Shown here: piece by piece, positions 3,689-27,285 of the stretch
Numbering within the stretch: the first letter of the stretch is position 1
Layout: the number at the start of each line of letters is the position of its first letter
IMG/VR virus record: IMGVR_UViG_3300002835_000063
Span: 44,881 to 108,880 of that record
Reading direction: 5' to 3' (one strand)
DNA from: a virus
DNA: 64,000 nt
Translations under genes and position numbers: made by a program
Notes under the pieces: model-generated
The model's input: the letters and a program-made list of their open reading frames with translations, nothing else
What the model was told of the DNA's origin: nothing
Databases searched by the model: none

Positions 3689-3703
3689 TTAGGAGAGAAT
3701 TAA

Positions 3704-5080
3704 ATGAGCAAGAGAGCTGGAAGAAAGTCTCAGGCTTCTAATGACTTTTTAGAGCCAAAAGCCCCGATTAACGTATCTGCTACGGACGTTGGAACTGCCC
3801 GTGCCTACAATGATGGCGCTGCTAGCGTTTCTTTCGAGTTACCAGGAGACTCGCCAGCCGCTACTTCTTATGAAGTTAAAGCATATAAAAATGGAACCAC
3901 TCTCGACACTACCGCAACTGGAACAACGGGGGCAAGCTCTCCTATCACAGTTGGCGGGCTAGATTCTGCCACTGGATATACTTTTACAGTATCTGCAACT
4001 AACGCTGCTGGCACATCGGCAGATTCAGCCGCATCTGCTTCTGTAACCATTACAACCGTCCCACAGGCTCCGCAAAGCCCATCAGCCACTTCTACAACTG
4101 CTAATCAAGACATCATCTCTTGGTCAAACGGTGCTAATGGTGGGAAAGCCATAACTAGCACATATTTTGTGTCAAGTGACCAGACCACAAATCCAGGCAA
4201 CGTAACCATGACCACCAACCCATGGACTGAGCCAGAAAACGGTGGTTCAACGCAGAACTATACTCTGTATCACGTAAACGATAATGGAACCTCAGCAGGC
4301 GCTTCTACCGCTAACGTAACTACGATTGCACCATTCTTCCCACCATTCTTCCCACCGTTCTTCCCATTCTTCCCGCCTTTCTTCCCGTTCTTCCCACCGT
4401 TCTTCCCACCGTTCTTCCCACCATTCTTCCCACCATTCTTCCCGTTCTTCCCACCTTTCTTCCCACCGTTCTTCCCGCCATTCTTCCCACCATTCTTCCC
4501 ACCGTTCTTCCCACCGATGTTCCCATTCTTCCCACCGTTCTTCCCACCGTTCTTCCCACCGATGTTCCCATTCTTCCCACCGTTCTTCCCACCTAGATTC
4601 CTATGTATTGAAGAAAACACAATGATCTTGACACCTAGAGGAGAGATCGCGGCTAAGGATCTTCGAGCAGGAGATACGGTATTGTCAATAGCAATTAATG
4701 AGATTGGCAATAACTCTGTTACCCCAATTGAATTCACTGTTGGTGCAACTTTGACGAGCACATCGCAGCTAGTCGAGACAAAGATTGTTGGAATTCTAGA
4801 GACCGTAAAGACCGGAATAACTTACTTCAACGGTAGGTCAGAGGCCAGATATTCTAGCCAGCAGCCACTGTTTGTTAAGTCTGATGGAGAATTCCAGGTA
4901 AAGATTGTTTCTAACATTAAGCTTGGAGATGCTCTCCTGCTGATTAATCCAGATGGAACATACACCGAAGAAGAGGTAACCGAAATTACTCTAGTTTCGG
5001 AGCCGGCCAATGTATTCCAATTCTCCTGCGAGCCATATCACTGGTTTATAGCTGGTGGCTACTTGGCCCACAATAAGTAA
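3704..5080 (+). CDS. FN3-domain protein with (PPFF)n tract and C-terminal Hint (intein-like) domain
   Basis: FN3-like segment (YTFTVSATNAAGTS); residues 210-297 almost only Pro/Phe; then CIEENTMILTPRG..AAKDLRAGDTVLS ... HWFIAGGYLAHNK*, matching Hint blocks A and F/G; AGGAG RBS. Confidence 0.85.
   Translation: MSKRAGRKSQASNDFLEPKAPINVSATDVGTARAYNDGAASVSFELPGDSPAATSYEVKAYKNGTTLDTTATGTTGASSPITVGGLDSATGYTFTVSATNAAGTSADSAASASVTITTVPQAPQSPSATSTTANQDIISWSNGANGGKAITSTYFVSSDQTTNPGNVTMTTNPWTEPENGGSTQNYTLYHVNDNGTSAGASTANVTTIAPFFPPFFPPFFPFFPPFFPFFPPFFPPFFPPFFPPFFPFFPPFFPPFFPPFFPPFFPPFFPPMFPFFPPFFPPFFPPMFPFFPPFFPPRFLCIEENTMILTPRGEIAAKDLRAGDTVLSIAINEIGNNSVTPIEFTVGATLTSTSQLVETKIVGILETVKTGITYFNGRSEARYSSQQPLFVKSDGEFQVKIVSNIKLGDALLLINPDGTYTEEEVTEITLVSEPANVFQFSCEPYHWFIAGGYLAHNK
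4331..4594 (+). repeat. Coding tandem repeat of 12-nt (PPFF) and 9-nt (PFF) units, 88 codons
   Basis: ccN ccN ttc ttc units; Pro third positions vary (cca/ccg/cct) while Phe is ttc; 22 FF and 2 MF dipeptides counted. Confidence 0.95.
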
Positions 5081-5098
5081 AAGCAGTACTACTAAACT

Positions 5099-5137
5099 AC
5101 CCCCCTTATGATTAGTAAGGGGGGGTGTTTATTTTTT
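5099..5137 (+). terminator. Intrinsic terminator after the PPFF-Hint gene
   Basis: cccccctta-tgattag-taagggggg hairpin followed by tgtttattttt. Confidence 0.8.
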
Positions 5138-5186
5138 AACTTTAATCACTATAATTGAATAGAGTGGTTTAACAGAAAGAATTTAT

Positions 5187-5921
5187 ATGAATACTTGGTT
5201 CACAAAAGACAGATCAGAGACTGACTCTAATCGAATGCCCCCAAGACCACTGGGCCAAAAAATACAAGTATTAAACCCTGCCTTAGGGATAAATGTATAT
5301 CGTGGCGCAATAACAAAAGAAGAGGGCAGGGCTTGCGTAGACATTTTAGAGTCAACCTTAAATGGCCAAACTCAATACAAATGGAGTGATGCTCAAGTTA
5401 CAAATTCTTCAAAGGCTAACCTAGAAGCAAGAAATGCCAAAGATTTTAAATTTAATTCGACTGGCCTAGGGCCAAAAAATGAAGAAAATGAAAAATTATA
5501 TGAAATGCACGAAAAAATTTTTAGGGCAGTAAAAGCATGTGTAGATGATTATGGTTATTACTGGGGCGTTGGGATAATGTCATATGAGGCTTTTAACTTT
5601 GTTAAGTATGAAGGAGCCGGGACCCACTTTAAAATTCACGCAGATCATGGCCCAACATATGTAACTACGGTGTCTATTGTCGTGTATCTCAACGATGATT
5701 ATGAGGGGGGAGAACTTTGGTTTCCCCGATTTGATTTAACCCTAAAACCACAAGCTGGAGATATAGCAGTTTTTCCGTCAACATACATCTACGAACACGC
5801 TTCGCAGGACATGATTAGTGGGACTAAGTATTCTGTTGTCATTATGAGCGACTATAATGACAGAGATAATGTAAACCAAAGAGTGCCTCAAACCATTCAA
5901 AATTATCAACTTAAGTACTAG
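5187..5921 (+). CDS. 2OG-Fe(II) oxygenase, prolyl-4-hydroxylase-like (1)
   Basis: HAD...VYLNDDYEGGEL.F...FPS...EH...GTKYS. Confidence 0.9.
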   Translation: MNTWFTKDRSETDSNRMPPRPLGQKIQVLNPALGINVYRGAITKEEGRACVDILESTLNGQTQYKWSDAQVTNSSKANLEARNAKDFKFNSTGLGPKNEENEKLYEMHEKIFRAVKACVDDYGYYWGVGIMSYEAFNFVKYEGAGTHFKIHADHGPTYVTTVSIVVYLNDDYEGGELWFPRFDLTLKPQAGDIAVFPSTYIYEHASQDMISGTKYSVVIMSDYNDRDNVNQRVPQTIQNYQLKY

Positions 5922-5932
5922 AAAGAGCCAAA

Positions 5933-6703
5933 GTGTCAGAACAGATCAACAAAACCGAAGAAGAAGTACGCCTAGAGGCAGAACAAAAAAGTAAAGAAGA
6001 GCAAAAAAATATACACGAGCGGCTAGTAAATTGGTACAAAATTGACGAGGTGACTTGGAGTTCAGCAGAAGAAATTGTTCCTGGCAGCGGCATTTGGGTA
6101 TACCATGATGTTTTGCCCGCCGAGATGAATATAATTTCTCGGTTAGAAGAAGTTTTAGATAATCCAGAAAATAACTATCAGTACCAAGAAGCAATGGTCG
6201 GATATGCAATGAAAATCCCGGAGTACCGAGACTGCGTAGATTTTAAATACAAAGAGAATGACTTTGACAATGATCAGTCAGAGTGGGGTGACAAGCTTCG
6301 ACAGTTGGCAAAAGATACAAAGTATAGACAGCTACAGGTAGTAAAAGATTACACAAGAAGATATAACATCGGCGAACTTCGTTACTGGGAAGCAACCAAC
6401 TATGTTCGCTATGGAGTTGGCCAACACTTCCAGGAACATCACGATCACGGGTACTCCTACAACTGTGTAGTTTCTTTGGTTGCGTACCCAAATGACGACT
6501 ACGAAGGCGGTGAGCTTTATTTCAGATTACAAAACATAACTGCTAAAGCCCGCGCTGGCGATGTTTTTATTTTTCCCTCTAATTTTATGTACCCACACAG
6601 GGCAATGCCAGTTAAGTCTGGAGTTAAATACTCTATGGTTACTATGCTTGATTACTCAGAAAAACTACACAATCCAGAATTTTTTAAGGAGCTAGAGAAC
6701 TAG
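5933..6703 (+). CDS. 2OG-Fe(II) oxygenase, prolyl-4-hydroxylase-like (2)
   Basis: HHD...YPNDDYEGGELYF...FPSNFMYPH...GVKYS. Confidence 0.9.
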   Translation: MSEQINKTEEEVRLEAEQKSKEEQKNIHERLVNWYKIDEVTWSSAEEIVPGSGIWVYHDVLPAEMNIISRLEEVLDNPENNYQYQEAMVGYAMKIPEYRDCVDFKYKENDFDNDQSEWGDKLRQLAKDTKYRQLQVVKDYTRRYNIGELRYWEATNYVRYGVGQHFQEHHDHGYSYNCVVSLVAYPNDDYEGGELYFRLQNITAKARAGDVFIFPSNFMYPHRAMPVKSGVKYSMVTMLDYSEKLHNPEFFKELEN

Positions 6704-7449
6704 TGTCAATAGTTTCGATACAAAAGCTTTTTAAAGAGGGAGACGTTGCAAATATTGAGCAACTTCCAGCCCGTAGAGACTGGATGGATCAAACTCAGGA
6801 CAAACATGCCTACATGTGTTTTCCCTTAAATCTAACAAACAGGCTTGGTTGGTCAATATCTTTTCCGGAGGATATTTCTTTTATTTGGGACGGAGTAACA
6901 GATACTTCTCCAGATCATGTAAAAATTTTAAAAGGAGAAAAATTTGTTCACCCAACTAGGGGAAATGCAACAATTAGTTTTTTAACTGGTTTAAAGTTCA
7001 CAACAGACCAAAATACTTCTATATTGGCAATGCCAGTACCCAACTTGTTTATCAGGGGGGCGCAGTGCTACACAACTCTGATGAGCACCTCTTTTTATAT
7101 ACACATGCTTCCACTGGCCTGGAGAATTACTGAACCAAACATAGAAATAGAAATACCAGCCGGAACCCCCGTAGCTTCAATTTTGCCAATCTCTTTAACA
7201 AATCTAGAGAACGACTACGAACTTCAAATTACCGAGGACCTGCCAGACGGATCCTACTGGGAAGAAGTTAGAAAGTATGGCGATGCAACCATAATTAAAA
7301 ATGGCGCGGGCGACTGGTCAAAAATGTATAGAGATGCCCTAGACTATAACGGAAATTCTGTTGGCTCTCATGAAACTAAATCAATAAAATTAAAAACTGT
7401 AGTATGCCCGGCTACAGGAAAAAACTATGAAATAGAGGAAACTATTTAA
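6703..7449 (+). CDS. DUF6065-like protein
   Basis: RDWMD...HAYMCFPL..TN.LGW and GTPVASILPI motifs recalled from this family; start overlaps the upstream stop. Confidence 0.65.
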   Translation: MSIVSIQKLFKEGDVANIEQLPARRDWMDQTQDKHAYMCFPLNLTNRLGWSISFPEDISFIWDGVTDTSPDHVKILKGEKFVHPTRGNATISFLTGLKFTTDQNTSILAMPVPNLFIRGAQCYTTLMSTSFYIHMLPLAWRITEPNIEIEIPAGTPVASILPISLTNLENDYELQITEDLPDGSYWEEVRKYGDATIIKNGAGDWSKMYRDALDYNGNSVGSHETKSIKLKTVVCPATGKNYEIEETI

Positions 7450-8189
7450 TGGAAACTAAAAAAATTAAGTTTGTAGTAAATAGACCTTGGTTAAGTAAAG
7501 AAAGTAGTTCTCTGCCAAAACCAACAATAAAAACTATTCCAGATTGGTACAGAGAGGGGGATCGATATGCAAAACATCCAGTAACTGGAGAGTACTGGAA
7601 AGATCCGCAGAATGGCGGAAAAATTCCAACTTGGAAAGCTTGCCCATCGGTATATGACATCATGGGCTCTGGCTATGTTTACAGGACTCCCTGCGACATT
7701 GAATTTAAAGAAAATATTTACGGACAAATAGAAGCCAAAGTTTTAGACGAAAAAAATAAAGACTTTTTGCAACTTAGAACGCCCATGCCAGGATTTAAAG
7801 CTCCAATGGGATACCACGATGTTCATTTTGCGTGGTGGGCTGATTGGGCGGTCGAATTGCCCGAGGGGTATAGTGCACTTTACTCCCAGCCGTTTAATAG
7901 ATTTGAACTGCCGTTTATTACAACTAGTGGAATTATTGATAACGACAAAGTCCATTTGCCGGGGACAATGCCATTTTTTGTTGTAAAAGGATTCCAAGGA
8001 GTTCTACCAGCAGGAACTCCGTATGCTCAGATCTTGCCATTTTTAAGAGAGCACTGGGAATCTGAAATTGTAGATTCCATAGGTTACGAAAAAATGGTAC
8101 AAAAAAATATGGACAACAGCCAAAAATACAGGGTCCCAGACGGCGGGGTTTACCAAAAAGATGTCTGGGAACGAAGAAAATACGAATAA
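7449..8189 (+). CDS. DUF6065-related protein
   Basis: IPDWY...TWKACP...D.MGSGY...SGIIDND...GTPYAQILPF.R; distant resemblance to the upstream gene. Confidence 0.55.
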   Translation: METKKIKFVVNRPWLSKESSSLPKPTIKTIPDWYREGDRYAKHPVTGEYWKDPQNGGKIPTWKACPSVYDIMGSGYVYRTPCDIEFKENIYGQIEAKVLDEKNKDFLQLRTPMPGFKAPMGYHDVHFAWWADWAVELPEGYSALYSQPFNRFELPFITTSGIIDNDKVHLPGTMPFFVVKGFQGVLPAGTPYAQILPFLREHWESEIVDSIGYEKMVQKNMDNSQKYRVPDGGVYQKDVWERRKYE

Positions 8190-8203
8190 GATAAACTAGA
8201 CCC

Positions 8204-8887
8204 ATGAGAAACGACTACACAAATAACAACATTACTCCATATATGTCAATAACCCCTTCAGGATTTTTTGGCGATTCTGCAGAAAATATTGTTGCTATTG
8301 ACGACTTTATGACCGAAGAAGAATTAACCTATCTAAACAATTTTGCTAGGAAAAATACCATGTGGGACGCAACCGAGACTCACTATAACGAAGATGGTAC
8401 AGTGATTTATGACTCTTCTTACTGGGATCATCGAGTTGCAACGGCTCCCATATTAAAAGAAGCTGATATAAAAGTAGTTGAACTAATATCTGATATGCAA
8501 GATAGATTAAAGAAAAAAGTTGATACTTTTTTCGCAGTGGATGCTCATCCCACAAGCCCGGCGCTAGTTAGGTGGCTACCCGGACAAAGACAGCAACCGC
8601 ACGCAGATAAAGAACTACATGAGGGCGAGGGCAGGGGGAAGCCAAATGACTTCCCATACTATGACATAGCTGGCCTTTTTTATATAAACGATGACTATGA
8701 GGGAGGAGAGCTATATTTCCCTAACCAAGGTATTCAATTTAAACCAAAAGCCGGATCAGCTTACTTTTTTCCAGGAGACATGAATTATATCCACGGAGTC
8801 ACAGAAATCAAGTCTGGAATTAGATATGTTTGCCCATTTTTCTGGACAATAAAAGAGCACACTGGCAACCACAAACCAAATTTATAG
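8204..8887 (+). CDS. 2OG-Fe(II) oxygenase, prolyl-4-hydroxylase-like (3)
   Basis: PHADKE...YINDDYEGGELYF...FPGD..YIHGV.....GIRY. Confidence 0.9.
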   Translation: MRNDYTNNNITPYMSITPSGFFGDSAENIVAIDDFMTEEELTYLNNFARKNTMWDATETHYNEDGTVIYDSSYWDHRVATAPILKEADIKVVELISDMQDRLKKKVDTFFAVDAHPTSPALVRWLPGQRQQPHADKELHEGEGRGKPNDFPYYDIAGLFYINDDYEGGELYFPNQGIQFKPKAGSAYFFPGDMNYIHGVTEIKSGIRYVCPFFWTIKEHTGNHKPNL

Positions 8888-8918
8888 TAGAATTATCATC
8901 AACAAGCAAGGATCTAAA

Positions 8919-9698
8919 ATGCATTTAGCCCAGAAACTACACGAAGAAGTTTATCTATACGAGGATGTAATTAGTGATCCCAAAAAACTTATTGATTTAA
9001 TTGAAGAATTAGATGAAGACGAAACTGTCCAAAGCGTAATTCCAGAATGGGGCTTTTGGTTTTCAAACAGCCGTGACGGTCACAGTTTCGGCAGTAAAAA
9101 AGATTTTAATCCAGAAGCCTTAGATCAACTAGACTCATCTAGAAAAGAAGATGTTGAGTTTATAGTAAAAGAAATTCAGAGTGGTGTAAAAAATGTTGCA
9201 GAATCCTACTACAAAGATAGAGGACTAGAGGGTCAACCACAAATATCTCCGTTTGTTGGAATTATGAAGTACCGCCCAGGCTGCGAAATGGGCGCACACT
9301 TTGACGCTCAGGCCGGAGATAGAAGTTTAAAGTATTCGATTGTGATGTATTTAAATGACGACTATGAGGGCGGAGAGATCTCCTTTATTATTAGACCATA
9401 TGATTTAAGAAACCCAAAAAATTTCCACCTTCAACCATCAACCGATGCTGACGACCCCAAAAATAAAGATCTCACAGACTTTACGCTAAAACCAAAAGCT
9501 GGATCAGCATTAATTTTTCCCTCTACTCATCCGTATAAGCACCAAGTTCACATAATTAAGGGTGGAGATAAGTATATTTTCCCTGGTTTTGTTTTTCAAG
9601 ATGATTTTGATCCAAATGATCCAGCTTCTAGAGAAAAATACAATGCCGGATCTCTATACGAAAAGCCAACCGAAGACGTTTATTTCGACGAAGACTAA
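8919..9698 (+). CDS. 2OG-Fe(II) oxygenase, prolyl-4-hydroxylase-like (4)
   Basis: AHFD...YLNDDYEGGEISF...FPSTHPYKHQV....GDKY. Confidence 0.9.
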   Translation: MHLAQKLHEEVYLYEDVISDPKKLIDLIEELDEDETVQSVIPEWGFWFSNSRDGHSFGSKKDFNPEALDQLDSSRKEDVEFIVKEIQSGVKNVAESYYKDRGLEGQPQISPFVGIMKYRPGCEMGAHFDAQAGDRSLKYSIVMYLNDDYEGGEISFIIRPYDLRNPKNFHLQPSTDADDPKNKDLTDFTLKPKAGSALIFPSTHPYKHQVHIIKGGDKYIFPGFVFQDDFDPNDPASREKYNAGSLYEKPTEDVYFDED

Positions 9699-9702
9699 TA
9701 AA

Positions 9703-11818: not shown

Positions 11819-11820
11819 GC

Positions 11821-13009: not shown

Positions 13010-13026
13010 TCAATTTAGCCAAACTG

Positions 13027-13036
13027 CGGTAAAATT
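13027..13036 (+). promoter_or_regulatory. GGTAAAAT -10-like motif upstream of the collagen operon
   Basis: cggtaaaatt; the same motif recurs before other structural operons. Confidence 0.55.
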
Positions 13037-13073
13037 GTAAGGACTAGTCTAATCCCCTGTTAGGACTTTCCGC

Positions 13074-16662: not shown

Positions 16663-16673
16663 GATAAACATAA

Positions 16674-17855: not shown

Positions 17856-17873
17856 AAATACCGAGGACTAATA

Positions 17874-19132: not shown

Positions 19133-19177
19133 GTATACTATTTCCTACACAGATCGAGCAATTAGATTTGCTCCGTC

Positions 19178-19187
19178 TATTTTACCC
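19178..19187 (-). promoter_or_regulatory. GGTAAAAT -10-like motif upstream of the membrane protein gene
   Basis: Minus strand gggtaaaata. Confidence 0.5.
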
Positions 19188-19327
19188 TATTAGGGTATCT
19201 TTTATTTGATGGGTCTAGCCGTTAAGTCGGTCACCAGTTAAATTTCAACATTTTTTAATTTTAACTTGCATCTGCACTCGAAAGGTGTAGTATGTAAAAA
19301 AGTTTTCTCGGAGAGTTTAATGATTTT

Positions 19328-22033
19328 TTGTGGTGGCAAGGGAGCCCTGATTTAGTGGCAGGCTGGGAGAGCGCAGAAGGAAGACTGGCTTCCGGGGCGC
19401 AATGGTATGCAAATAAAGGCTGGCAGGTTCTTCCAGTACACGGGATCGACAGAAACGGCATGTGTACTTGCGGTAAAACCCACAAAGACCCAAAAGAAAA
19501 TGCAAAACATCCAGCATCTGAAAATGGCCAAAAAGATGCGACTACAAATATTGAAACAGTTAATTCTTGGTGGACTCAAAACAAAGATTACAACATCGGA
19601 ATTTATGCAAAAGACTCCGGATTTTTTGTTATTGATATAGACCCCCGGCACAATGGCCACGAATCTTTAATTAAACTAGAAGAACGTGCCTTAGGGAATT
19701 TACCTAAAACTGTAGAAGCTATTACAGGAGAATACTCAACAAAGACTGGTCCAATGAGGGGTCGCCACTTAATTTATAGGTGCAATCCAAACGAAAAGTT
19801 TATTGGCAATTTTAAAGCTCAAGGTTTAGATGGAATAGACATTAAGCACAATGGCTACATTCTTGTTGCACCGTCTAGACACTCTACTGGTCACTGTTAT
19901 GAGTGGAAGCCAGGCCACGCCCCGTGGGAAATTGAGATAGCCGAAGCACCAGAAGAACTTTTAGATGTAATTAGATCAAGAACGCTAAAAAAGTCTGGAA
20001 AATTTGGTGGATCAAATTATGAAACAAGCGACTGGGAATTCCTTAGAGATTTAAATTTTGGAACTACTGGAAACAAATTAGATATAGATAAAATTCTCGA
20101 AGAAGGAATTGACGAAGGCGGCAGAGCCGTCGGTCTATATCAGCTTGCATGCGCTTTAGCTAACAAATTCGGTACCGACGTAGCTGGCAGAACTTCAGTT
20201 GAAGCAATGATGCTTAAGTTTAACGCCGAAATGGTTAGGCCACCTCTTGACGTAGAGGGCAGCAATGGTCTACTTATGCACACTAGGCGTGCCATCGACT
20301 TCGTAGCAAATAATCCAGTATGGGAAAAGTGGTGGGACGGGCTAAAAGATTATGTACCTGAAAATGGTATGGAGTGGGCAAAAAAAGCCCAAGCAAATTT
20401 TGTAAAAGCTCCGTCACCCCTAACATCTTTTAACTATGTCGCTACAGCAGAAAAAGTAGAAGCAAATTCTTTGGTGGTACCTAGTTATGCAAATTCAGTT
20501 GGCGATCAAGTTGCTTCTTTGGCCGCAAAAGGTAGGTCAGTAAAAGATATAGCTTCTGGTGGAAATTTAGATTTACCAAATGATGCTGACTCAATAAGCG
20601 AAGAGGGTGGGGGCCGTATAGGCTTTAGAAGTCTTACAGATGTTGGAAATGGTAGAAGATTAGTCGATTCTTTCGGATCAACTATTCGCTATACAGACAA
20701 AGTTGGTTGGTATGTCTGGAATGGAAATTATTGGAAACCAGACGATGAATCTACTCAAATTAAAGAAATTGCTAAATCAGTGGCAACTGTAATTGCTCGG
20801 GAAGTAGTAGACCTAAATAGTCCAGATGATCCTAGGGGTGGAGAGCTGGTTAAGTGGGCAAATGCCGCTAAGTCAAACTCAAGAATTATCTCAATGATCG
20901 AGCAAGCAAAAACAGATCCCAGAATAACAATGCAAATTGATGAATGGGACAAAGACCCCTACTTACTTGGTGTCAGAAATGGAGTAGTGGATCTGAGAAC
21001 AGGAACTAAACAAGACGGAGACATTGCATCTCACATAACTAGAATTTCCCCTATTTCCTACACTCAAGGACTAACAAATGTTAGGTGGACAAACTTCTTA
21101 AATGAAGCATTCAATGGGGATCAAGAATTTATAAATTGGGTTCAAAAAGCAGTTGGCTACACTGCTACTGGATTTACTAATCATGACGTTTTGTTTCTTA
21201 TCTATGGACCACCAGGCTCCGGTAAAAACACATTTATTGAAACAATTTTTGAGGCTTTAGGTAAGTCCCAGCACGCATGGGCACTTGATTCAAATGTTTT
21301 AGCCTTAGGCGACAGAGTAAGCAGTACTGACGAATATCACATGGCCGAACTTAGAGGTCGTCGTATGATTTGGGTAGACGAGCTACCAGAAAACGAACGC
21401 ATTAAAGAAAATCAAGTAAAGAAGTTAACTGGTTCTGGAACTCTTCAGGGACGATCTCCTGGAGAAAAACCTATTCAGTTTAAATCTACTGGAAAGCTTT
21501 GGATATCTACTAACCACAGGCCAATTATCACAGATGATGCAATGTGGCGAAGATTGCTGCCTATCCCACTAACAAACAAACCAGCTAAGCCAGACCCAGG
21601 ACTCAAAAAATATCTTGCCGACCCAGACGGAGCGCTTCCTGCAGTGCTTTCGTGGATCGTAGAGGGTGCGATTAAATTTCTATCTTCCGGCCAAGATAAT
21701 CCGCTGGAGATGTGCACGGCTGTAAGGAATGCTCACGAAATATACAGACAGAATGAAGACAGAATGGGGGCATTTTTGATAGAGGAGACCACTACCGGCG
21801 AAAGCGTAAATGTTAATTCACTGTATAAGAGATATAAGGCATGGTCAGATTCTAGAGGAGAGCGTCCTATTACCCAGATAGGATTCCACAGAAAACTTTC
21901 TGACAGAGGACTTGTGCTAATTGGATCGGGAAATAAAGCCATTGTGCAGGGTATTGCACTAATACCGCACTCAATCAACTATGACGAACCGTCGGGCCTC
22001 GGGACTGCCGCCAGATTCTCAACTTCTTTTTAA
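19328..22033 (+). CDS. Bifunctional primase-polymerase fused to D5-like SF3 helicase
   Basis: CTCGK..KHP, NIGI...VIDIDPRHNG, GRHL (Prim-Pol); TDVGNGRRL (D5_N); Walker A GPPGSGKNT; WVDE; TNHRP..DDAMWRR. Confidence 0.92.
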   Translation: MWWQGSPDLVAGWESAEGRLASGAQWYANKGWQVLPVHGIDRNGMCTCGKTHKDPKENAKHPASENGQKDATTNIETVNSWWTQNKDYNIGIYAKDSGFFVIDIDPRHNGHESLIKLEERALGNLPKTVEAITGEYSTKTGPMRGRHLIYRCNPNEKFIGNFKAQGLDGIDIKHNGYILVAPSRHSTGHCYEWKPGHAPWEIEIAEAPEELLDVIRSRTLKKSGKFGGSNYETSDWEFLRDLNFGTTGNKLDIDKILEEGIDEGGRAVGLYQLACALANKFGTDVAGRTSVEAMMLKFNAEMVRPPLDVEGSNGLLMHTRRAIDFVANNPVWEKWWDGLKDYVPENGMEWAKKAQANFVKAPSPLTSFNYVATAEKVEANSLVVPSYANSVGDQVASLAAKGRSVKDIASGGNLDLPNDADSISEEGGGRIGFRSLTDVGNGRRLVDSFGSTIRYTDKVGWYVWNGNYWKPDDESTQIKEIAKSVATVIAREVVDLNSPDDPRGGELVKWANAAKSNSRIISMIEQAKTDPRITMQIDEWDKDPYLLGVRNGVVDLRTGTKQDGDIASHITRISPISYTQGLTNVRWTNFLNEAFNGDQEFINWVQKAVGYTATGFTNHDVLFLIYGPPGSGKNTFIETIFEALGKSQHAWALDSNVLALGDRVSSTDEYHMAELRGRRMIWVDELPENERIKENQVKKLTGSGTLQGRSPGEKPIQFKSTGKLWISTNHRPIITDDAMWRRLLPIPLTNKPAKPDPGLKKYLADPDGALPAVLSWIVEGAIKFLSSGQDNPLEMCTAVRNAHEIYRQNEDRMGAFLIEETTTGESVNVNSLYKRYKAWSDSRGERPITQIGFHRKLSDRGLVLIGSGNKAIVQGIALIPHSINYDEPSGLGTAARFSTSF

Positions 22034-22052
22034 AGATATAGGATAAGTAACT

Positions 22053-22883
22053 ATGAAGATATATATTGCAACTCCCATGTATGGCGGAATCGCTAAAAAC
22101 ACTTACACCATTGGACTACAAAATCTCATTGTTGCCCTATCTCAAGCTGGTCACACAATTACGACTACCGTAGTAGGCAACGAAAGCCTAATTACTAGGG
22201 CTAGAAACACTCTTGCTCACAAGTTCATGAAAACTGACTGCGACGCTCTTTTGTTTATTGATGCGGACCATGGCTGGAATGCAGGCGATGTTGTAAAAAT
22301 GATTGAGTCCGGTAAAGATTTTATTGGCGCAATTTACCCAATGAAGGGGATCAACTGGGAAAACGTACGTATAGCTGCGCTTGCGGGGAGACCAGCCAAC
22401 GAGCTAGAACTTTATTCGGGCTATTTTGCGATTAATTTGTTGCCAGAAAATCAGAATTTTAACGAAAATGAGCCATTCAAAGTTAAAGATGTCGGAACTG
22501 GAATGCTTTTCCTAACTCGAAAAGTTTTTGAGGATCTTGAGCCACACTGTAAAAAGTATAAAAACAACAATGTGGGGGAAACTGGAATCCAATTCGGAGA
22601 CATGATTACCGAGTACTTCACAACATTCATTGATGACGGTAATATCCTATTGTCAGAAGACTATGCTCTTTGCAGAATGTGGCAAAATATCGGCGGCGAA
22701 GTTTGGGCAGCTCCATGGGTTCGCATCACCCATTCGGGGGACTATAACTTCTCTGGCAGATTTGTCAGAATGTTAGAAGCTTCAAATATTAAAAAAGCAC
22801 TAGACGCAGCAAATGCTGCAAAAAATAAAAACTCAACAGAAAATAGTACAGAAGTAGAAAAAAAGGAACCTTCTACGAAGTGA
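22053..22883 (+). CDS. GT-A-fold glycosyltransferase-like protein
   Basis: IATPMYGG, ESLITRARN, FIDAD (DxD), GTGML, LSEDY. Confidence 0.7.
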   Translation: MKIYIATPMYGGIAKNTYTIGLQNLIVALSQAGHTITTTVVGNESLITRARNTLAHKFMKTDCDALLFIDADHGWNAGDVVKMIESGKDFIGAIYPMKGINWENVRIAALAGRPANELELYSGYFAINLLPENQNFNENEPFKVKDVGTGMLFLTRKVFEDLEPHCKKYKNNNVGETGIQFGDMITEYFTTFIDDGNILLSEDYALCRMWQNIGGEVWAAPWVRITHSGDYNFSGRFVRMLEASNIKKALDAANAAKNKNSTENSTEVEKKEPSTK

Positions 22884-22929
22884 GAAAATAGATTTGAGGG
22901 AGATTCCCTTAGATCGAGGTAACTGAATA

Positions 22930-23046
22930 TTGGCTAATGTAAAAGACTATATCTGTGCAGTCTGCTCAAAGCAACACGTTGTCCCCAGTTTGGCAAGAGA
23001 ATGTGAGACAAAACACGAAGTAGTAATTTTACGAAAAGCGGGCTAA
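22930..23046 (+). CDS. Putative 38-aa zinc-finger microprotein (not in ORF track)
   Basis: TTG start after GAGG; MANVKDYICAVCSKQHVVPSLARECETKHEVVILRKAG* with CxxC...CxxxH; fills an intergenic gap. Confidence 0.55.
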   Translation: MANVKDYICAVCSKQHVVPSLARECETKHEVVILRKAG

Positions 23047-23079
23047 TTTCTCATTTCTGTAGTAGCATAGGTTCAACCA

Positions 23080-23379
23080 TTGGTTGAAGGAGAGGCTATG
23101 GCTCTAGCAGATCGACTCAAGACTGCGCAGTACAGGTACAAAGAAGATAACTTTGCCTGCAAGCTGATTGCAATTACCAAAGACAGCAAGCTAAGCGACA
23201 AAGATGTTGCTGCGCTCCTGTCCATTATTAATTCACGGCCTGGTGATGAGGACCATGTGCCGAACATACGACTAGCATATGCACTTCGTGAAGAAGGCTA
23301 TGACATCAGTCCAAGCACCGTAGATAGACACCGAAACGGCATCTGTGCTTGCTCTAGAGTTCAGGGAGGAACTAAGTGA
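23080..23379 (+). CDS. Small hypothetical protein, possibly DNA-binding
   Basis: LAYALREEGYDISPSTVDRHR...CAC; likely start is ATG 23098 after GGAGAGG; coupled to the phosphoesterase. Confidence 0.65.
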   Translation: MVEGEAMALADRLKTAQYRYKEDNFACKLIAITKDSKLSDKDVAALLSIINSRPGDEDHVPNIRLAYALREEGYDISPSTVDRHRNGICACSRVQGGTK

Positions 23380-24575
23380 GCTTATCGGAAAAATTAGAAA
23401 AGCTTCGCTCACCCGGGCGCAGCGGTTCGGACACCAAAACAATTAAACAACCAGAAGACTGGCGTCCAAGAATGGATATCGATACCGTTCGTGGTGGCTT
23501 TGTGGTCGGATCTCCAAGACCAGAGCACGAAGTAGTAGACGCCACTACTGTGCTGGCAGAATTTGGATTAAACCCCGCAGAGTGGAATGTAACTTCACTT
23601 AGACGAGGTAAGTGGCAAAAACACGATGGTGATTGGCTAGAGTCAGTTCGAGTAAATGTTATTCCAGCAAACCATATGGCTACAGATGAGCTTGACATAG
23701 AACAGCTCGTAGATCACATTAAAAAGTGGCGTCCTGGCAAAGACACTAAAAAGTCAACTGGCGAGGGCGCTTTTCTTGTTGCCCCAAGTGATCAGCAGAT
23801 TGGTAAAAAAGCTAACGGTGAAGGCACTGGACAGTCAGTCGAGAGAATCCTTGCCCTTACAGAAAAAGCTGTAAATCGATTTCAACAAAACCTAAAAGCT
23901 GGCATTAATCCAGGCACAATATGTCTGGCCCTACTCGGCGATCACGTAGAAGGCACCACAAGTCAAAACGGAAGACTTCAGGGTCAGGCGGCCTCCGATC
24001 TTGGTATGACAGAACAAACTAGAGTTGCTAGACGCTTGTTATTGGCTCAGGTAAAAGCTTTTGCCCCACTAGTAAACAAATTAATAATTCCAGTGATTAA
24101 TGGAAACCACGACGAAGCAACTCGTCAAGTTGTAACAGATCCAGCTGATGGTTGGAACGTGGAGATCGCCTCTGCAGTTCAGGACATCTGCGCAGAAAAC
24201 CCAGAACTAGCCCACGTTGAGTTTAGATACCCAAGCAGTGGACACCAAACCCTAACAATAAATGTTGAAGGAACTATGCTTGGAATGTTCCACGGACATC
24301 AAGCAAATCAAAATAATACCCTCAGGTATTTATCCCAGCAAGCCGCCGGTCAAACAGCTTTAGGTCAGGCAGACATTTGGATTTCTGGCCACTTCCACAA
24401 TTTTAAAACTATGGATATAGGGGAGCGCCTGTGGGTGCAAGCTCCCACAACAGATCCTGGAAGTGAGTGGTTCCGAGATCGAGCTGGAATGAATTCTAAA
24501 CCAGGATTGCTAACTATGATTCTAGGAGGAAGCTACGAACCAAGAGAGCATATCGGGGTCCTGAGTGTCAAATAA
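23376..24575 (+). CDS. Calcineurin-like metallophosphoesterase (Mre11-like phage family)
   Basis: SDQQ, LGDHVEG, GNHDE, FHGHQ, SGHFH motifs. Confidence 0.85.
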   Translation: MSLSEKLEKLRSPGRSGSDTKTIKQPEDWRPRMDIDTVRGGFVVGSPRPEHEVVDATTVLAEFGLNPAEWNVTSLRRGKWQKHDGDWLESVRVNVIPANHMATDELDIEQLVDHIKKWRPGKDTKKSTGEGAFLVAPSDQQIGKKANGEGTGQSVERILALTEKAVNRFQQNLKAGINPGTICLALLGDHVEGTTSQNGRLQGQAASDLGMTEQTRVARRLLLAQVKAFAPLVNKLIIPVINGNHDEATRQVVTDPADGWNVEIASAVQDICAENPELAHVEFRYPSSGHQTLTINVEGTMLGMFHGHQANQNNTLRYLSQQAAGQTALGQADIWISGHFHNFKTMDIGERLWVQAPTTDPGSEWFRDRAGMNSKPGLLTMILGGSYEPREHIGVLSVK

Positions 24576-25224
24576 TTTAGATACCAGAGAAAAAATTACA
24601 ATTGGTGGCGCCCCGAGATCAGGCAGCACTTATTTAAAATACTTTTTAACTTGTCAATACAAAGGATCTGAACTATTTATACAAAAAACTCACCTAGAAC
24701 TTGATCATTTAGATCGTATAAAAAATCCAGATAAAGAAGAAACTTGGTTGATACCTGTAAGAAATGCAATGGATACGGCAAAATCAATTCTAGCTTGGCA
24801 AAACCACAAAGAACCAAAAAATTTTTTAGATAAAATTTATTCAACAACTACTCCAATTTATGGAACCTTAGACTCAATTACCAGATTGTGGGAAACTATT
24901 CTTTTAGATAAAAGTAAATTTATATTTTTAGATTTTAATTTACTAATTTCCGATAAAAATTATGTCGAAACAAAACTTGAATCTAATATTTCAAGATTGC
25001 TGGTAGAAAAATGTCCATTTAAGGTTTCAGACAAAGAAATAAAAGATAACTTAGAAAAAGATGATAGAAATAATTTTTTGACTGAAGAAGATTACTTAAA
25101 TATGGGGCATATACCGAGAAATAAGTCAGAAATACTTAAAAATTTAGATATTATTTTTGACTCAGATGTTTATACCAAAAGACTTCAGTATTTAGATTCT
25201 TTGTCTTTAGAGCTTCTGTCTTAA
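24565..25224 (+). CDS. Sulfotransferase-like P-loop protein
   Basis: GAPRSGSTYL resembles the 5'-phosphosulfate-binding loop and VRNAMD the 3'-phosphate motif; lies next to APS kinase. Confidence 0.55.
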   Translation: MSNNLDTREKITIGGAPRSGSTYLKYFLTCQYKGSELFIQKTHLELDHLDRIKNPDKEETWLIPVRNAMDTAKSILAWQNHKEPKNFLDKIYSTTTPIYGTLDSITRLWETILLDKSKFIFLDFNLLISDKNYVETKLESNISRLLVEKCPFKVSDKEIKDNLEKDDRNNFLTEEDYLNMGHIPRNKSEILKNLDIIFDSDVYTKRLQYLDSLSLELLS

Positions 25225-25241
25225 AAATTGTTAGGATAAAA

Positions 25242-26009
25242 ATGATTATATTAATTTATGGACTCCCCGGATCGGGAAAAACAGAGCTAGCTAAGTCTCT
25301 ACTAAATAGAGTAGACGCCCTCCATCTCAATGCAGATGAAGTCAGGGCTGATCTGAACTCAGATCTAGGATTTTCTATTGAAGACAGAGTAGAGCAGGCT
25401 AGGCGAATGGGAGCGCTGGCTAGGCTGCTCTCTAGGCAAGGCAAACTGGTAATTGTGGACTTTGTATGTCCAACTAAAGAAACCAGAGCGGCTTTTGGTA
25501 AAGCAGACTTTAGTGTGTGGATGGACAGAATACAAGAAAGTAGATTTGAAGACACTAATCGTTTGTGGGAGACGCCACTAGAAAACGAGTATTCCCTGAG
25601 GATACCGAATGGCTGGGGAGTTGAAAGAGAAACAGACACAATAATTAACTCGGCTAATTTGTTTGATTGGAGTGCTCCTACTACGCTAATGCTTGGAAGG
25701 TATCAGCCTTGGCACGAAGGACATGAAGCACTTAAGATTGAGGGTCACCAGAGAACAGACCAGGTTCTAGTCGGAGTTCGCAATACCTACAAAACTTCTG
25801 AAAAAGATCCTCTAACTTATTCAGAGGTTGAATATTTAATATCAGAAAATAGTAAGTCTTCCAAAGAAAATACCTTAGTTCTCAGGCTTCCTAACATAAC
25901 TAACATTATTTATGGCAGAGACGTCGGGTATAAAATTGAGCACGTAGAATTAAGCCCCGAAATTCAAGCTATATCTGCAACACAAAAAAGAAAAGAGCTC
26001 GGGATATGA
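25242..26009 (+). CDS. cysC: Adenylylsulfate kinase fused to HxGH nucleotidyltransferase domain
   Basis: GLPGSGKT, LNADEVR, LGFS.EDR.EQARR, VDFVCP (APS kinase); C-terminal GRYQPWHEGH. Confidence 0.75.
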   Translation: MIILIYGLPGSGKTELAKSLLNRVDALHLNADEVRADLNSDLGFSIEDRVEQARRMGALARLLSRQGKLVIVDFVCPTKETRAAFGKADFSVWMDRIQESRFEDTNRLWETPLENEYSLRIPNGWGVERETDTIINSANLFDWSAPTTLMLGRYQPWHEGHEALKIEGHQRTDQVLVGVRNTYKTSEKDPLTYSEVEYLISENSKSSKENTLVLRLPNITNIIYGRDVGYKIEHVELSPEIQAISATQKRKELGI

Positions 26010-26218
26010 ATGTAACTAGAACAAGGTCTGCAGCAAAAGCAATTTCTTGGAGAATAATAGGAACTGCAGATACTTTTCTTATTTCATGGTTTATAACAAA
26101 AGAGCCAGTTGCAGCCGCATCTATAGCTTCTTTAGAAGTTCTAACAAAAACTATTTTGTATTACTTTCATGAGCGCGGGTGGAACTTTGTTCAGTGGGGA
26201 AGAAGGCCGTCTAAATGA
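26006..26218 (+). CDS. DUF2061-like small membrane protein
   Basis: RS.AKAISWRIIG...LYYFHER.W..V.WG. Confidence 0.75.
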   Translation: MNVTRTRSAAKAISWRIIGTADTFLISWFITKEPVAAASIASLEVLTKTILYYFHERGWNFVQWGRRPSK

Positions 26219-27285
26219 CAAAAATAGCTGTCTACACAATTGCACTAAATGAAGAACAATTTGTTGAGCGCTGGTATAAAAGCGCAAAAGATGCTGATTA
26301 TCTTCTTATTGCGGATACGGGAAGTACGGACGGAACGGTAGAAGCAGCCAAAAAGCTTGGAATAAACGTAGTAGAAATCTCGATTAAACCTTGGCGCTTT
26401 GATGATGCACGTAACGCTTCTCTAGCTTCCCTACCAATAGACATTGACATGTGTGTTCAGCTTGATATGGATGAGATCCTGTTGCCAGGCTGGCGGGATG
26501 AAATAGAAAACGCTCTTAAGCAAGGAGCAACCAGGATTAGATATAACTACACCTGGAATTGGAAAGATGAAGAAGAAACCATACCAAACATAACTTTTGG
26601 TGGAGATAAAATCCATGCCAGAAAGGGCTATAGGTGGAAGCACCCAGTCCATGAGGTAATCGTACCTTACGGTAATACTATAGAAAAGCAAGTTTGGACT
26701 CAGTTAGAGCTGCACCACCACCCAGACAAAACAAAGTCTAGGTCCCAGTACCTACCGCTACTGAAACTATCAATCGAAGAAGATCCACATGATGATAGGA
26801 ACGCCTATTATTACGCTAGAGAGCTTTATTTCCATCGGGAGTATAAAGAGGCCACCGAGCAATTTAAACGTCACCTAGGGCTTCCTACGGCCGTTTGGGC
26901 CCCAGAGAGAGCCGCTTCTATGAGATACCTAGCCAAGCTAGAGCCGGAAGAAAAAGAAGCATGGCTAGTAAAAGCTCATATGGAGGCCCCTTGGCGTAGG
27001 GAAGCCTTAGTGGAGCTTGCTCAGCACTTCTATGAGACGCAGTCTTGGGCGTCCTGTCTCCACTTTGCAGAAAAAGCCCTAGCCATAAAAGAAAAACCTA
27101 TGGACTATCTTTGCGAGGATTTTGCTTGGGGATATTTGCCTTGGGATCTAGCAGCAATTGCTGCTTACCATGAGGGAAATTACAATAAAGCTTATAAATA
27201 CGGAAATACAGCTCATCAGTTAAATCCGACAGAGAAAAGACTAGAAAATAATCTTAGGTACTACTCTGTGGGGGTTTCTTCTTAG
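26215..27285 (+). CDS. GT2-family glycosyltransferase with C-terminal TPR-like region
   Basis: NEE..V.R, DTGSTDGT, RFDDARN, LDMDE, W.HPVHE, helical repeats in the C-terminal half. Confidence 0.85.
   Translation: MTKIAVYTIALNEEQFVERWYKSAKDADYLLIADTGSTDGTVEAAKKLGINVVEISIKPWRFDDARNASLASLPIDIDMCVQLDMDEILLPGWRDEIENALKQGATRIRYNYTWNWKDEEETIPNITFGGDKIHARKGYRWKHPVHEVIVPYGNTIEKQVWTQLELHHHPDKTKSRSQYLPLLKLSIEEDPHDDRNAYYYARELYFHREYKEATEQFKRHLGLPTAVWAPERAASMRYLAKLEPEEKEAWLVKAHMEAPWRREALVELAQHFYETQSWASCLHFAEKALAIKEKPMDYLCEDFAWGYLPWDLAAIAAYHEGNYNKAYKYGNTAHQLNPTEKRLENNLRYYSVGVSS

Follow-up and report, generated by a model that had tools for sequence, protein, structure and literature searches.

A candidate protein-tailoring cassette pairing proline/phenylalanine tracts with prolyl-hydroxylase-like oxygenases in a freshwater phage, possibly one of three separable modules

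Introduction

This study concerns a 64,000-nucleotide stretch of phage DNA (the window), bases 44881-108880 of the 108,880-bp IMG/VR record IMGVR_UViG_3300002835_000063 (CheckV completeness 65%), and in particular a cassette in which a tail-fibre gene and a gene encoding a protein with a proline/phenylalanine (PPFF) tract are followed by an array of 2-oxoglutarate (2OG)-Fe(II) oxygenases that resemble prolyl 4-hydroxylases (P4H). The pairing of tract and hydroxylase-like genes recurs across phages and provides strong circumstantial evidence for a protein-tailoring cassette in which the tract is the best candidate substrate. A second pairing, of moderate strength, appears to link a GT2 glycosyltransferase with a C-terminal TPR region (GT2-TPR) to Gly-Pro-Thr (GPT) collagen-like proteins. 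A sulfation unit is probably real; in other phages its kinase-DUF2061 pair lies near halogenase and hydroxylase genes and not near fibres. Tandem 2OG-oxygenase arrays of phages have had no assigned substrate since their description in cyanophages in 2010, and the Pro/Phe neighbour is a concrete candidate that can be synthesized.

A preliminary description of this DNA had joined all of these genes in one pathway of hydroxylation, glycosylation and sulfation. The reading that we put first, tentatively and with not quite even confidence, is that the stretch holds three separable modules (the tract-oxygenase cassette, the GPT collagens with GT2-TPR, and the sulfation unit). The gene content on which the preliminary description was built was recovered, with some corrections: the two PPFF genes, the three GPT collagen-like genes and the eight 2OG-Fe(II) oxygenase genes all lie on the plus strand where it had placed them.

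The tract-oxygenase cassette

The features of the cassette and of the second PPFF gene are as follows, in window numbering.

1466-3688, plus strand: tail-fibre protein with an Mtd_N domain (Pfam Mtd_N, E 3e-15), the first gene of the conserved cassette
3704-5080, plus strand: FN3-(PPFF)n-Hint protein, 458 aa (Pfam fn3, E 2e-7; Hint matches weak and below cut-off)
4331-4594 (aa 210-297), plus strand: 88-residue Pro/Phe tract (42 Pro, 44 Phe, 2 Met), candidate hydroxylase substrate
4604-5080, plus strand: Hint-like, putatively autoprocessing domain, from Cys301 to His-Asn-Lys-stop (Cys1 invariant, block A conserved)
5187-5921, plus strand: P4H-like 2OG-Fe(II) oxygenase O1, conserved core (PF13640, 43.5 bits; orthologues of 38-65% identity in nine array-bearing records)
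5933-6703, plus strand: P4H-like oxygenase O2, conserved core (PF13640, 48.8 bits; orthologues of 46-64% identity)
6703-7449, plus strand: DUF6065 protein with a predicted dUTPase/dCTP-deaminase-like fold and an invariant Cys39 (Pfam, E 3e-25)
7449-8189, plus strand: phrog_7084 protein (PHROG, E 2e-30)
8204-8887, plus strand: P4H-like oxygenase O3, conserved core (PF13640, 33.8 bits; orthologues of 43-70% identity)
8919-9698, plus strand: P4H-like oxygenase O4 (PF13640, 43 bits; orthologues of 61-62% identity in two records)
9703-10317, plus strand: P4H-like oxygenase O5 (PF13640, 37.2 bits)
10308-10964, plus strand: P4H-like oxygenase O6 (PF13640, 54.3 bits)
10964-11818, plus strand: TauD/TfdA-family 2OG oxygenase (PF02668, E 1.5e-16), found in few related records only
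11821-12291: protein of 156 aa without a family match, inside the array
12275-13009, plus strand: P4H-like oxygenase O7 (PF13640, 40.8 bits)
17874-18752, plus strand: second PPFF protein, with an N-terminal domain, a (PPFF)5PP linker (nt 18273-18338) and a He_PIG Ig domain

The conservation of this arrangement was followed in at least 120 IMG/VR contigs encoding (PPFF)4. The order of fibre gene, tract gene, and oxygenases with DUF6065 recurs in these loci. A homologue of the 3704-5080 protein is present in 105/120 and an oxygenase in 84/120, while an Mtd_N fibre homologue lies immediately 5' of the tract gene in 72/120. The DUF6065 family, which the window protein matches at 89.3 bits (cut-off 26.6), occurs in 57/120 loci and phrog_7084 in 27. 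An oxygenase or DUF6065 gene follows the tract within 3 kb in 69 of the 87 loci with at least 1.5 kb of downstream sequence, and within 1 kb in 54. When the test was reversed, a tract was found within 3 kb upstream in 49 of 58 loci containing an O1 orthologue, at a median distance of 678 bp. The preliminary description had proposed co-occurrence across phages as a check on the whole gene set; PPFF and oxygenase genes do co-occur, with a reciprocal adjacency of about 80-85% in loci with enough flank, but PPFF was seen near GT2-TPR in a single locus and near the kinase fusion described below in none. High oxygenase copy number, which it had also named, is seen as well, as PF13640 is present in 32 of 34 long PPFF-bearing records, mostly in 6-13 copies; its correlation with tract length is weak.

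Twelve related records were compared in full; at phmmer E 1e-5 none of them has a capsid, portal, tape-measure, terminase or replication gene in common with this phage, and the full fibre-tract-oxygenase cassette is common to 9 of the 12. Because the cassette is shared while the backbone genes are not, these comparisons indicate that it is mobile and moves as a unit, and that the linkage reflects more than whole-genome common descent. Among 185,579 cellular species genomes only 10 tract stretches were found, all on contigs of metagenome-assembled genomes (MAGs), and six of these are accompanied by the same cassette. Near-identical copies of 3704-13009 were found in 16 DNA runs from 11 lake, freshwater and river studies spanning 2016-2025, one of which is possibly the source sample. 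A freshwater RNA library contains fragments of the fibre and oxygenase genes, which is weak evidence of expression as DNA carry-over is possible. A megablast search with 25 kb against 50,697 deposited phages returned no DNA-level match, and tblastn searches with the FN3 part and with the DUF6065 protein against deposited phages also returned none, so that no cultured carrier of the cassette was found among them.

The eight 2OG oxygenases of the window comprise seven PF13640 proteins and one TauD protein, and all eight enzymes named in the preliminary description stand, although the array also contains the DUF6065, phrog_7084 and 11821-12291 genes. All seven PF13640 paralogues score above the gathering cut-off of 27 bits (33.8-54.3). 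The whole genome has ten places that exceed this cut-off and 12 paralogues in all, seven in the array and five upstream of the window. The HxD...H iron triad (H151, D153 and H204, nearly invariant) and a Lys or Arg about 10 residues past the distal His, the residue expected to bind the C5 carboxylate of 2OG, are present in 11 of the 12, the exception being the paralogue L002:10224-10808 upstream of the window, which lacks the metal triad. Each PF13640 gene of the window encodes the HxD, an NDDYEGG-type motif and a Lys or Arg about 10 residues after the aligned distal His. These enzymes are single-domain proteins of 204-259 aa with no second Pfam domain, unlike the animal collagen P4H alpha subunit with its TPR-like peptide-binding domain; a weak TPR_P4H match (E 0.0014) falls on the GT2-TPR protein and not on the oxygenases. 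The start of O5 is most likely the ATG at 9703, right behind the O4 stop codon, which amends an earlier call.

When a profile of the 12 paralogues was compared with PDB sequences, human collagen P3H1 was the best match (2e-15), followed by Bacillus anthracis P4H (1e-13), PiuC-type hydroxylases (~1e-11 to 1e-12), the P4H of PBCV-1 (8e-9) and a Naegleria Tet-like dioxygenase (9e-8). The relatives in cultured phages are 2OG oxygenases of cyanomyoviruses, at about 28% identity. This similarity to prolyl hydroxylases is what makes peptidyl-proline hydroxylation a candidate activity of O1-O7. Orthologues of O1-O3 are 38-70% identical across records, compared with 29-37% between paralogues, and because orthologue identity exceeds paralogue identity the O1-O3 core is judged to be old and each of its members to be non-redundant. 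The TauD-like protein had no match among PDB sequences. The 156-aa protein inside the array recurs in 4 PPFF loci and, in 1-3 copies, in seven of the whole records compared.

The tract protein of the recurring cassette has the layout FN3-FN3-(PPFF)n-Hint. The FN3-tract protein has 603 relatives, all metagenomic, and many of those in viral loci stop right after the tract with the sequence ...PPxFK. The first tract is a 12-nt tandem repeat in 23 copies, and the 12-nt unit TTCTTCCCACCG is common to both tracts. Phe is encoded by TTC at 44/44 positions of the first tract, whereas TTT is favoured genome-wide (654 vs 272). In both tracts Phe is always TTC, while Pro is encoded by CCA and CCG in alternation. 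In DNA run X2 contigs stop on both sides of the first tract and the depth there rises about seven-fold, presumably because the repeat is common to many phages; a joint in the same run that skips 4408-5196 was disregarded because one of its sides is only 23 letters long. The relatives P0064 and P0112 have Trp-containing tract units (PWFPWFPPWF). Tryptophan halogenase genes recur in these phages (23 of 80 kinase-fusion loci, and DSL-LC01), and halogenation of peptide-bound Trp in such tracts is conceivable. Homologues of the second PPFF protein occur in 19 PPFF loci, often following collagen-like genes. A search of the literature outside most subscription journals turned up nothing relevant on phage PPFF repeats or on hydroxyproline in virions of phages.

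The tract of the 3704-5080 protein is followed by a Hint-like domain. Length-matched relatives have a C-terminal domain of 155-220 residues in 78/120 cases, and the Hint-like tails start with Cys in 70/70 distinct family members, with T10, G13, A17 and G23 of block A conserved. The TxxH expected in block B reads SxxQP (S84...P88) in both tail classes, an assignment made by position rather than by structural alignment. One class ends in His-Asn-Lys, with His and Asn conserved in 29/29 and 27/29 members, and the other ends in IVIS or IVIA without Asn. Pfam scores are below the cut-offs (PT-HINT 18.4 vs 27.7, Hint_2 18.1 vs 28.4, Intein_splicing 17.4 vs 35.8), and several homologues of the tract protein hold precomputed PF14890 or PF07591 assignments. 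The chemistry common to both classes would be N-terminal cleavage at the tract-Cys bond. The domain is not expected to splice, given that the +1 position, where a splicing intein has a Cys, Ser or Thr nucleophile, is taken by a Lys followed by the stop codon.

Two further proteins stand between O2 and O3. The model of the DUF6065 protein (predicted local distance difference test score, pLDDT, 81) has 6ky8 as its best Foldseek match at 2.7e-4. In VIA the top 21 rows are all dUTPases, dCTP deaminases or dUTPase-derived proteins (Z 9.9-5.1), with Z falling to 3.3 from rank 24. Two structure-comparison methods thus assign the modelled protein a dUTPase/dCTP-deaminase-like fold. The invariant residues include R25, W27, M28, T31, H35, A36, Y37, C39 and P41 and, judged by eye, are unlike the dUTPase catalytic motifs. 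A profile of the DUF6065 family matched nothing among PDB sequences below E 0.1. The phrog_7084 protein is possibly related to DUF6065, and then distantly at best (hhalign probability 57%, E 1e-4). Its homologues in cultured viruses are found only in haloarchaeal tailed viruses (Halorubrum, Haloarcula), whose top matches have 26-29% identity and span roughly 90% of its length. Such a distribution is odd for a gene belonging to a cassette of freshwater actinophages.

Collagen-like proteins and glycosyltransferases

The genes of the second candidate module, together with a further possible glycosyltransferase, are the following.

13451-15862, plus strand: collagen-like fibre protein 1 (Pfam Collagen, E 6e-50; 141 Gly-X-Y triplets, 51 of them GPT)
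15862-16662, plus strand: collagen-like protein 2 (Pfam Collagen, E 1e-22)
16674-17855, plus strand: collagen-like protein 3 (Pfam Collagen, E 2e-26)
22053-22883, plus strand: phrog_1574 protein, possible GT-A glycosyltransferase (PHROG, E 3e-32)
26215-27285, plus strand: GT2-TPR (PF00535, 23.8 bits against a cut-off of 23.3, marginal; TPR matches)

The three collagen-like proteins contain 252 Gly-X-Y triplets in runs of up to 47, with Pro at X in 114/252 and Thr at Y in 151/252. G-x-P occurs only 7 times and the helices contain no Lys. Because Pro stands at X and is almost absent from Y, these proteins are predicted to be poor substrates for a collagen P4H; they lack the canonical sites of collagen P4H and lysyl hydroxylase and resemble the GPT-type collagens of bacteria. 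Collagen-like genes also rarely adjoin the oxygenase cassette in other phages, a test limited by flanks of at most 10 kb. On both counts the suggestion that the collagens are hydroxylated by the array finds little support.

GT2-TPR belongs to PHROG 13126 (E 7e-113). Among deposited sequences it is most similar to a protein of Actinomycetia phage DSL-LC01 (60% identity). In that phage GT2-TPR is the last gene of a block that also encodes a giant fibre protein, two collagen-like proteins, a hypothetical protein and a halogenase, and it faces a WhiB gene as it does here. A collagen-like open reading frame (ORF) is present in 41 of 80 viral GT2-TPR loci. Of the 45 loci with at least 6 kb of upstream sequence, 32 have such an ORF upstream in the same orientation, in some only 109 bp away, and the link is kept in 28 of 44 loci that lack the backbone genes of this phage. 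A PPFF tract is near GT2-TPR in 1/80 loci.

The preliminary description had counted two glycosyltransferases downstream of the array. GT2-TPR can be kept as one of them, with its marginal PF00535 score, but the 22053-22883 protein has no Pfam or NCBIfam match, and its family profile matched nothing among PDB sequences below E 0.1. An atlas lead connects it to an Anp1-type cluster, 32% of whose members fall in the family, and it has an invariant Asp in an IDAD motif, so that we assign it only tentatively as a GT-A glycosyltransferase.

Sulfation genes

Three adjoining genes make up the third candidate module.

24565-25224, plus strand: probable 3'-phosphoadenosine 5'-phosphosulfate (PAPS)-dependent sulfotransferase (conserved motifs and fold; Pfam score below cut-off)
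25242-26009, plus strand: bifunctional protein with an adenosine 5'-phosphosulfate (APS)-kinase-like P-loop kinase domain and an NMNAT-like HxGH nucleotidyltransferase domain (the kinase fusion; PHROG 10255)
26006-26218, plus strand: DUF2061 small membrane protein (Pfam, E 1e-22), a fixed partner of the kinase fusion

The sulfotransferase-like gene of the preliminary description is upheld by fold and motifs. Residues R18-S19-G20, H48 and R66/D70/K73/S74 are invariant in 5 sequences, three of them near-identical, and we take these residues to be the 5'-phosphosulfate-binding (5'-PSB) loop, the catalytic His and the 3'-phosphate-binding (3'-PB) motif. Sulfotransferases make up nearly all of the PDB matches listed by Foldseek for the model (pLDDT 77), headed by tyrosylprotein sulfotransferase-1 (TPST1, 5wrj) at E 3e-3. 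The probabilities are mostly 0.8-1.0, while E-values are only 3e-3 to 5e-2 and TM values 0.3-0.5. The Pfam Sulfotransfer_3 score is 19.2 bits, under the cut-off of 27, and the family profile matched nothing among PDB sequences below E 0.1. Fold and motifs together make it probable that the protein is a PAPS-dependent sulfotransferase. Four further loci, of which three are near-identical, also have the gene directly beside the kinase fusion.

What had been called an APS-kinase fusion keeps its APS-kinase-like N-terminal domain, although the apsK score of this domain is below cut-off and its partner is an NMNAT-like nucleotidyltransferase. The kinase domain scores 63.3 bits against Pfam APS_kinase (cut-off 21.1) over profile positions 4-91 of 152. 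The C-terminal domain matches NMNAT at E 5e-6 with the motif HxGH...ISxTxxR and is not sulfurylase-like. In 63 sequences the motifs of both domains are at least 90% conserved (P-loop, D41-L42-x-F44, D48-R49, R54-R55). We take DLGFS...DR...RR to be the APS-binding motif, and the DGD motif to be Mg-binding. Ralstonia jumbo phages have the N-terminal domain alone, annotated as APS kinase.

DUF2061 adjoins the kinase fusion in 76/80 loci. The recurrent neighbours of this pair include WhiB, a P4H-like oxygenase (39 loci), an SNase nuclease, a tryptophan halogenase (23), an AspH-like hydroxylase (22) and a CHAP lysin. We provisionally set aside the readings of the kinase fusion as an NadR-like enzyme of nicotinamide adenine dinucleotide (NAD) salvage or as a metabolic cysC auxiliary gene, as genes of NAD salvage and sulfur assimilation are not among these neighbours. 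The sulfotransferase, kinase fusion and DUF2061 are probably a PAPS-dependent sulfation unit, which we regard as a candidate. In the 80 loci with the kinase-DUF2061 pair, a PPFF tract was never found within 10 kb (0/80) and a collagen-like ORF in 4/80. These counts, with the single GT2-TPR locus that has a PPFF tract, speak against the one hydroxylation-glycosylation-sulfation pathway of the preliminary description.

Genome context and host

The plus strand from 2 to 18752 encodes fibre-type proteins, the tract protein, the oxygenases, the collagen-like proteins and the second PPFF protein. This block is interrupted at 18752-19328 by a 576-bp gap that contains a minus-strand ORF. The second plus-strand block (19328-27285) opens with a PrimPol-D5 primase-helicase and also holds the phrog_1574 protein, a helix-turn-helix protein, a metallophosphoesterase, the sulfotransferase-like gene, the kinase fusion, DUF2061 and GT2-TPR. 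The glycosyltransferase and sulfation genes are therefore on the same strand as the array, as first described, but in a separate block. The block break is based on the gap and the opposing ORF alone; in a promoter and terminator consensus scan of 12800-27600 the counts equalled the shuffled expectation (22 vs 21.8; 14 vs 14.1), leaving transcription-unit borders unsupported. The minus strand from 28 to 64 kb holds replication genes and apparent large siphovirus-type structural genes, the structural call being made from ORF length and order only.

Two WhiB genes point to an actinobacterial host: one at 27254-27727 of the window (minus strand; Pfam, E 2e-17) and a second at 37827-38156 (minus strand, whole-record numbering). 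The host assignment follows from the presence of WhiB in the genome and from its recurrence beside GT2-TPR and the kinase fusion in related phages. In contrast to this signal, some cassette-bearing MAG contigs were binned as Verrucomicrobiales, Gammaproteobacteria and Cyclobacteriaceae.

The 45 kb upstream of the window (whole-record 1-44880) contain the five further P4H-like paralogues, one of them the protein without a metal triad, and a second DUF2061. Also encoded there are GT2, GT8 and GT61 glycosyltransferases, an NAD-dependent epimerase, a carbamoyltransferase, a sugar nucleotidyltransferase, a TagD-like cytidylyltransferase, an apparent NrdHIE and an apparent further collagen-like gene at 43217-43924, these two judged from N-terminal sequence only. 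A small protein of 120-125 aa precedes each collagen-like set (window 13074-13451; whole-record 42855-43217). By eye the two resemble paralogues, and they may mark the starts of two parallel fibre operons. The few non-cassette genes common to otherwise unrelated tract-bearing records include a 1493-aa protein (window 54086-58567, minus strand), an SNase-like nuclease (whole-record 10409-10822) and a holin-like/789-aa pair (7736-10409).

Proposed function and competing explanations

In the three-module reading, module 1 (1466-13009) would be a mobile, fibre-linked protein-tailoring cassette consisting of the fibre protein, the FN3-tract protein, O1-O3, the DUF6065 and phrog_7084 proteins and a variable set of paralogues. 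Late in infection, prolines of the tract would be hydroxylated by the oxygenases, which might also act on other proteins of the fibre region. Via a thioester, the Hint domain would release itself where the tract meets Cys301, and the C-terminus left behind would be roughly the one that Hint-less relatives encode directly (...PPxFK). In module 2, GT2-TPR probably O-glycosylates the Y-position Thr of the three GPT collagen-like proteins, as in BclA. In module 3, the sulfotransferase, the APS-kinase-like/NMNAT-like enzyme and DUF2061 would form the candidate PAPS-dependent sulfation unit. The earlier proposal that the oxygenases are virion-maturation enzymes thus retains the conserved pairing with a Pro-rich tract protein in the fibre region and loses the single fibre-tailoring pathway.

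Several observations weigh against this reading. At least seven distinct hydroxylases seem excessive for a two-residue repeat. PF13640 proteins are absent from two PPFF-bearing records (48% and 58% complete) and present as a single copy in three, and several tract proteins of other architecture have no nearby oxygenase. The correlation between tract length and oxygenase number is weak (rho 0.40, p 0.05, n=25, uncorrected for kinship). PPFF could be merely structural, as is suggested by the second tract, a short linker between domains. In the best-known viral case the P4H of PBCV-1 is active on Pro-rich peptides, yet no hydroxyproline was detected in the virions (PMC7019647). As to the sulfation unit, the kinase domain scores 62.4 bits against NCBIfam apsK, far under the cut-off of 138.7, and its DGD motif reads N30-A31-D32 (NAD). 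No PF01747 or PF01507 match, and thus no ATP sulfurylase or CysD/CysH, was found in the 108.9-kb, 65%-complete record. Full-length homologues of the kinase fusion (38-42% identity) in the ~56-kb Salvovirus phages, such as Xylella phages Sano and Salvo and Clavibacter phage 33, sit among nucleotide-metabolism genes. Finally, the dUTPase fold of DUF6065 and the match of the paralogue profile to Naegleria Tet make a nucleotide substrate conceivable.

That last possibility can be stated as an array acting on nucleotides or DNA, in which Tet/JBP-like hydroxylation is followed by glycosylation or phosphorylation and the dUTPase-fold proteins and the kinase-nucleotidyltransferase are partners. Single proteins give weak Tet_JBP matches in its favour, in addition to the dUTPase/dCTP-deaminase-like fold, the 9e-8 profile match and the Salvovirus neighbourhoods; nevertheless we consider it very improbable. 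Protein prolyl hydroxylases are the best matches, with E-values six to seven orders of magnitude below that of Tet, Tet_JBP scores reach about half the Pfam cut-off, the array sits between fibre genes and outside the replication module, and dUTPase catalytic motifs are not evident by eye among the invariant DUF6065 residues. It is also unlikely, though it deserves more weight, that these are host-directed auxiliary genes that modify host proteins, envelope or metabolism, with a fibre region that tolerates cargo and recombines as a block and with PPFF as a rigid or sticky linker. The genome does encode envelope-type functions elsewhere (GT2, GT8, GT61, epimerase, TagD-like cytidylyltransferase, M23 peptidase), its five further P4H-like paralogues are distant from any tract, lone oxygenases adjoin lysis-type genes in related phages and the cyanophage homologues have no tract. 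The second tract is clearly an inter-domain linker, and DUF2061 genes are iron- or Fur-regulated in bacteria, being induced by iron limitation or linked to Fur in Caulobacter and Shewanella. Cargo, however, is usually variable, whereas the order of fibre gene, tract gene, O1, O2 and O3 is kept with one-to-one orthologues across backbone-unrelated records, and the reciprocal adjacency of tract and oxygenase genes is that given above (~80-85%).

A third alternative has the oxygenases, halogenases and dUTPase-fold proteins tailoring a small peptide or secondary metabolite, with the tract as a repeat-type precursor that is released by Hint. Iyer et al. 2010 (PMC2938197) gave such a reading for cyanophage arrays. 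Tryptophan halogenase (23), AspH-like hydroxylase (22) and P4H-like oxygenase (39 loci) genes stand beside kinase-DUF2061, the genome has a carbamoyltransferase, the fold matches of the sulfotransferase include the glycopeptide enzymes Teg12 and StaL, and the tract of some relatives contains Trp (PWF units). Against this, the tract is fused to a Pfam-matched FN3 domain right after a tail-fibre gene, an arrangement typical of proteins associated with virions; a gene for a peptidase, cyclase, exporter or non-ribosomal peptide synthetase was not seen in the cassette; and most relatives end in PPxFK after the tract without a release domain. We regard this alternative as distinctly unlikely. Equally hard to credit is a more ambitious tailored appendage, in which at least three P4H-like enzymes would make a hydroxyproline-rich rod, the Hint thioester would ligate the C-terminus of the rod to a virion protein, a host envelope component or a lipid, and glycosyl- and sulfotransferases would decorate the hydroxylated tract and the GPT fibres. 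If true, this would be a phage counterpart of extensin and collagen maturation and the first assigned function for tandem oxygenase arrays.

The three-module reading has its own consequences. If the tract is hydroxylated, phages run a multi-enzyme post-translational maturation of their own appendages that goes beyond the glycosylation known from mycobacteriophages, and a function would be gained for genes that are abundant in lakes and rivers and persist there. The Hint-capped tract could serve as a self-cleaving protein-ligation module. Additionally, the kinase-nucleotidyltransferase-DUF2061 unit is a conserved, uncharacterized phage enzyme system in its own right.

Comparison with known systems

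The closest phage parallel is the block gp41-gp54 of cyanophage Syn9, which contains ten tandem dioxygenases, two tryptophan halogenases and a Cys-bearing dUTPase-fold protein (Iyer et al. 2010, NAR 38:5261, PMC2938197). The same authors tied neighbourhoods of multiple dioxygenases and halogenases to peptide and secondary-metabolite biosynthesis. The Syn9 array directly follows its tail-fibre genes on the same strand, and weak matches connect gp50 to the P4H-like profile (5e-9) and gp43 to the DUF6065 profile (2e-5, in a 25-protein database). The two systems thus share many divergent tandem 2OG dioxygenases, a Cys-bearing dUTPase-fold protein and the position of the array after fibre genes. 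They differ in that neither a Pro/aromatic tract protein nor a Hint domain is encoded in the Syn9 block. The Syn9 dioxygenases come from five or more families, JmjC among them, whereas the core here consists of three P4H-like subfamilies, and the authors' proposal there was metabolite synthesis rather than virion tailoring.

The idea of hydroxylation followed by sulfation is not new, as Iyer et al. 2010 (PMC2938197) already predicted that bacterial collagen-like or tail-collar proteins encoded beside a dioxygenase, a sulfotransferase and a PAPS synthetase are hydroxylated and then sulfated. The window likewise has dioxygenases, collagen-like proteins, a sulfotransferase and an APS-kinase-like enzyme. 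The bacterial systems have beta-hydroxylase or PhyH dioxygenases rather than P4H-like ones, and there is no ATP sulfurylase match here. In phages related to this one the sulfation genes are not beside collagen or tract genes, and the scheme of Iyer et al. is itself a prediction.

PBCV-1 resembles this phage in encoding a small P4H (5c5t) together with Pro-rich repeat proteins as proposed substrates (Eriksson et al. 1999, as cited in PMC7019647). It has a single enzyme rather than an array, and its host is eukaryotic. The P4H and Pro-rich repeat genes of PBCV-1 are not known to be adjacent.

Virion glycosylation is known from mycobacteriophages: actinobacteriophages decorate their virion proteins at C-terminal tails with glycosyltransferases of their own (Freeman et al. 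2023, Cell Host Microbe, cited in PMC12619734). Their targets are the C-termini of capsid and tail-tube proteins and not collagen-like fibres or Pro/Phe tracts, and no hydroxylation or sulfation step is known there.

The Hint-like domain shares with hedgehog-type Hint and bacterial intein-like (BIL) domains a catalytic N-terminal Cys after the released part, block A and, in one class, a C-terminal His-Asn. The SxxQP of block B, the Lys-stop at +1 and the second class without a terminal Asn set it apart.

For the collagen-like proteins the nearest comparison is BclA, whose repeats are GPT and are O-glycosylated on Thr. To our knowledge the glycosyltransferases acting on BclA are not GT2-TPR enzymes. 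BclA is a cellular spore-surface protein, and a link between it and the B. anthracis P4H (BaP4H; 3itq, 5hv0) has not been demonstrated in vivo. BaP4H is the second-best structural relative of the window paralogues (1e-13), and the collagen-like region of BclA, which is glycosylated in the exosporium of Bacillus anthracis/cereus (PMC8968730), has Thr at the Y position just as the GPT proteins of the window do.

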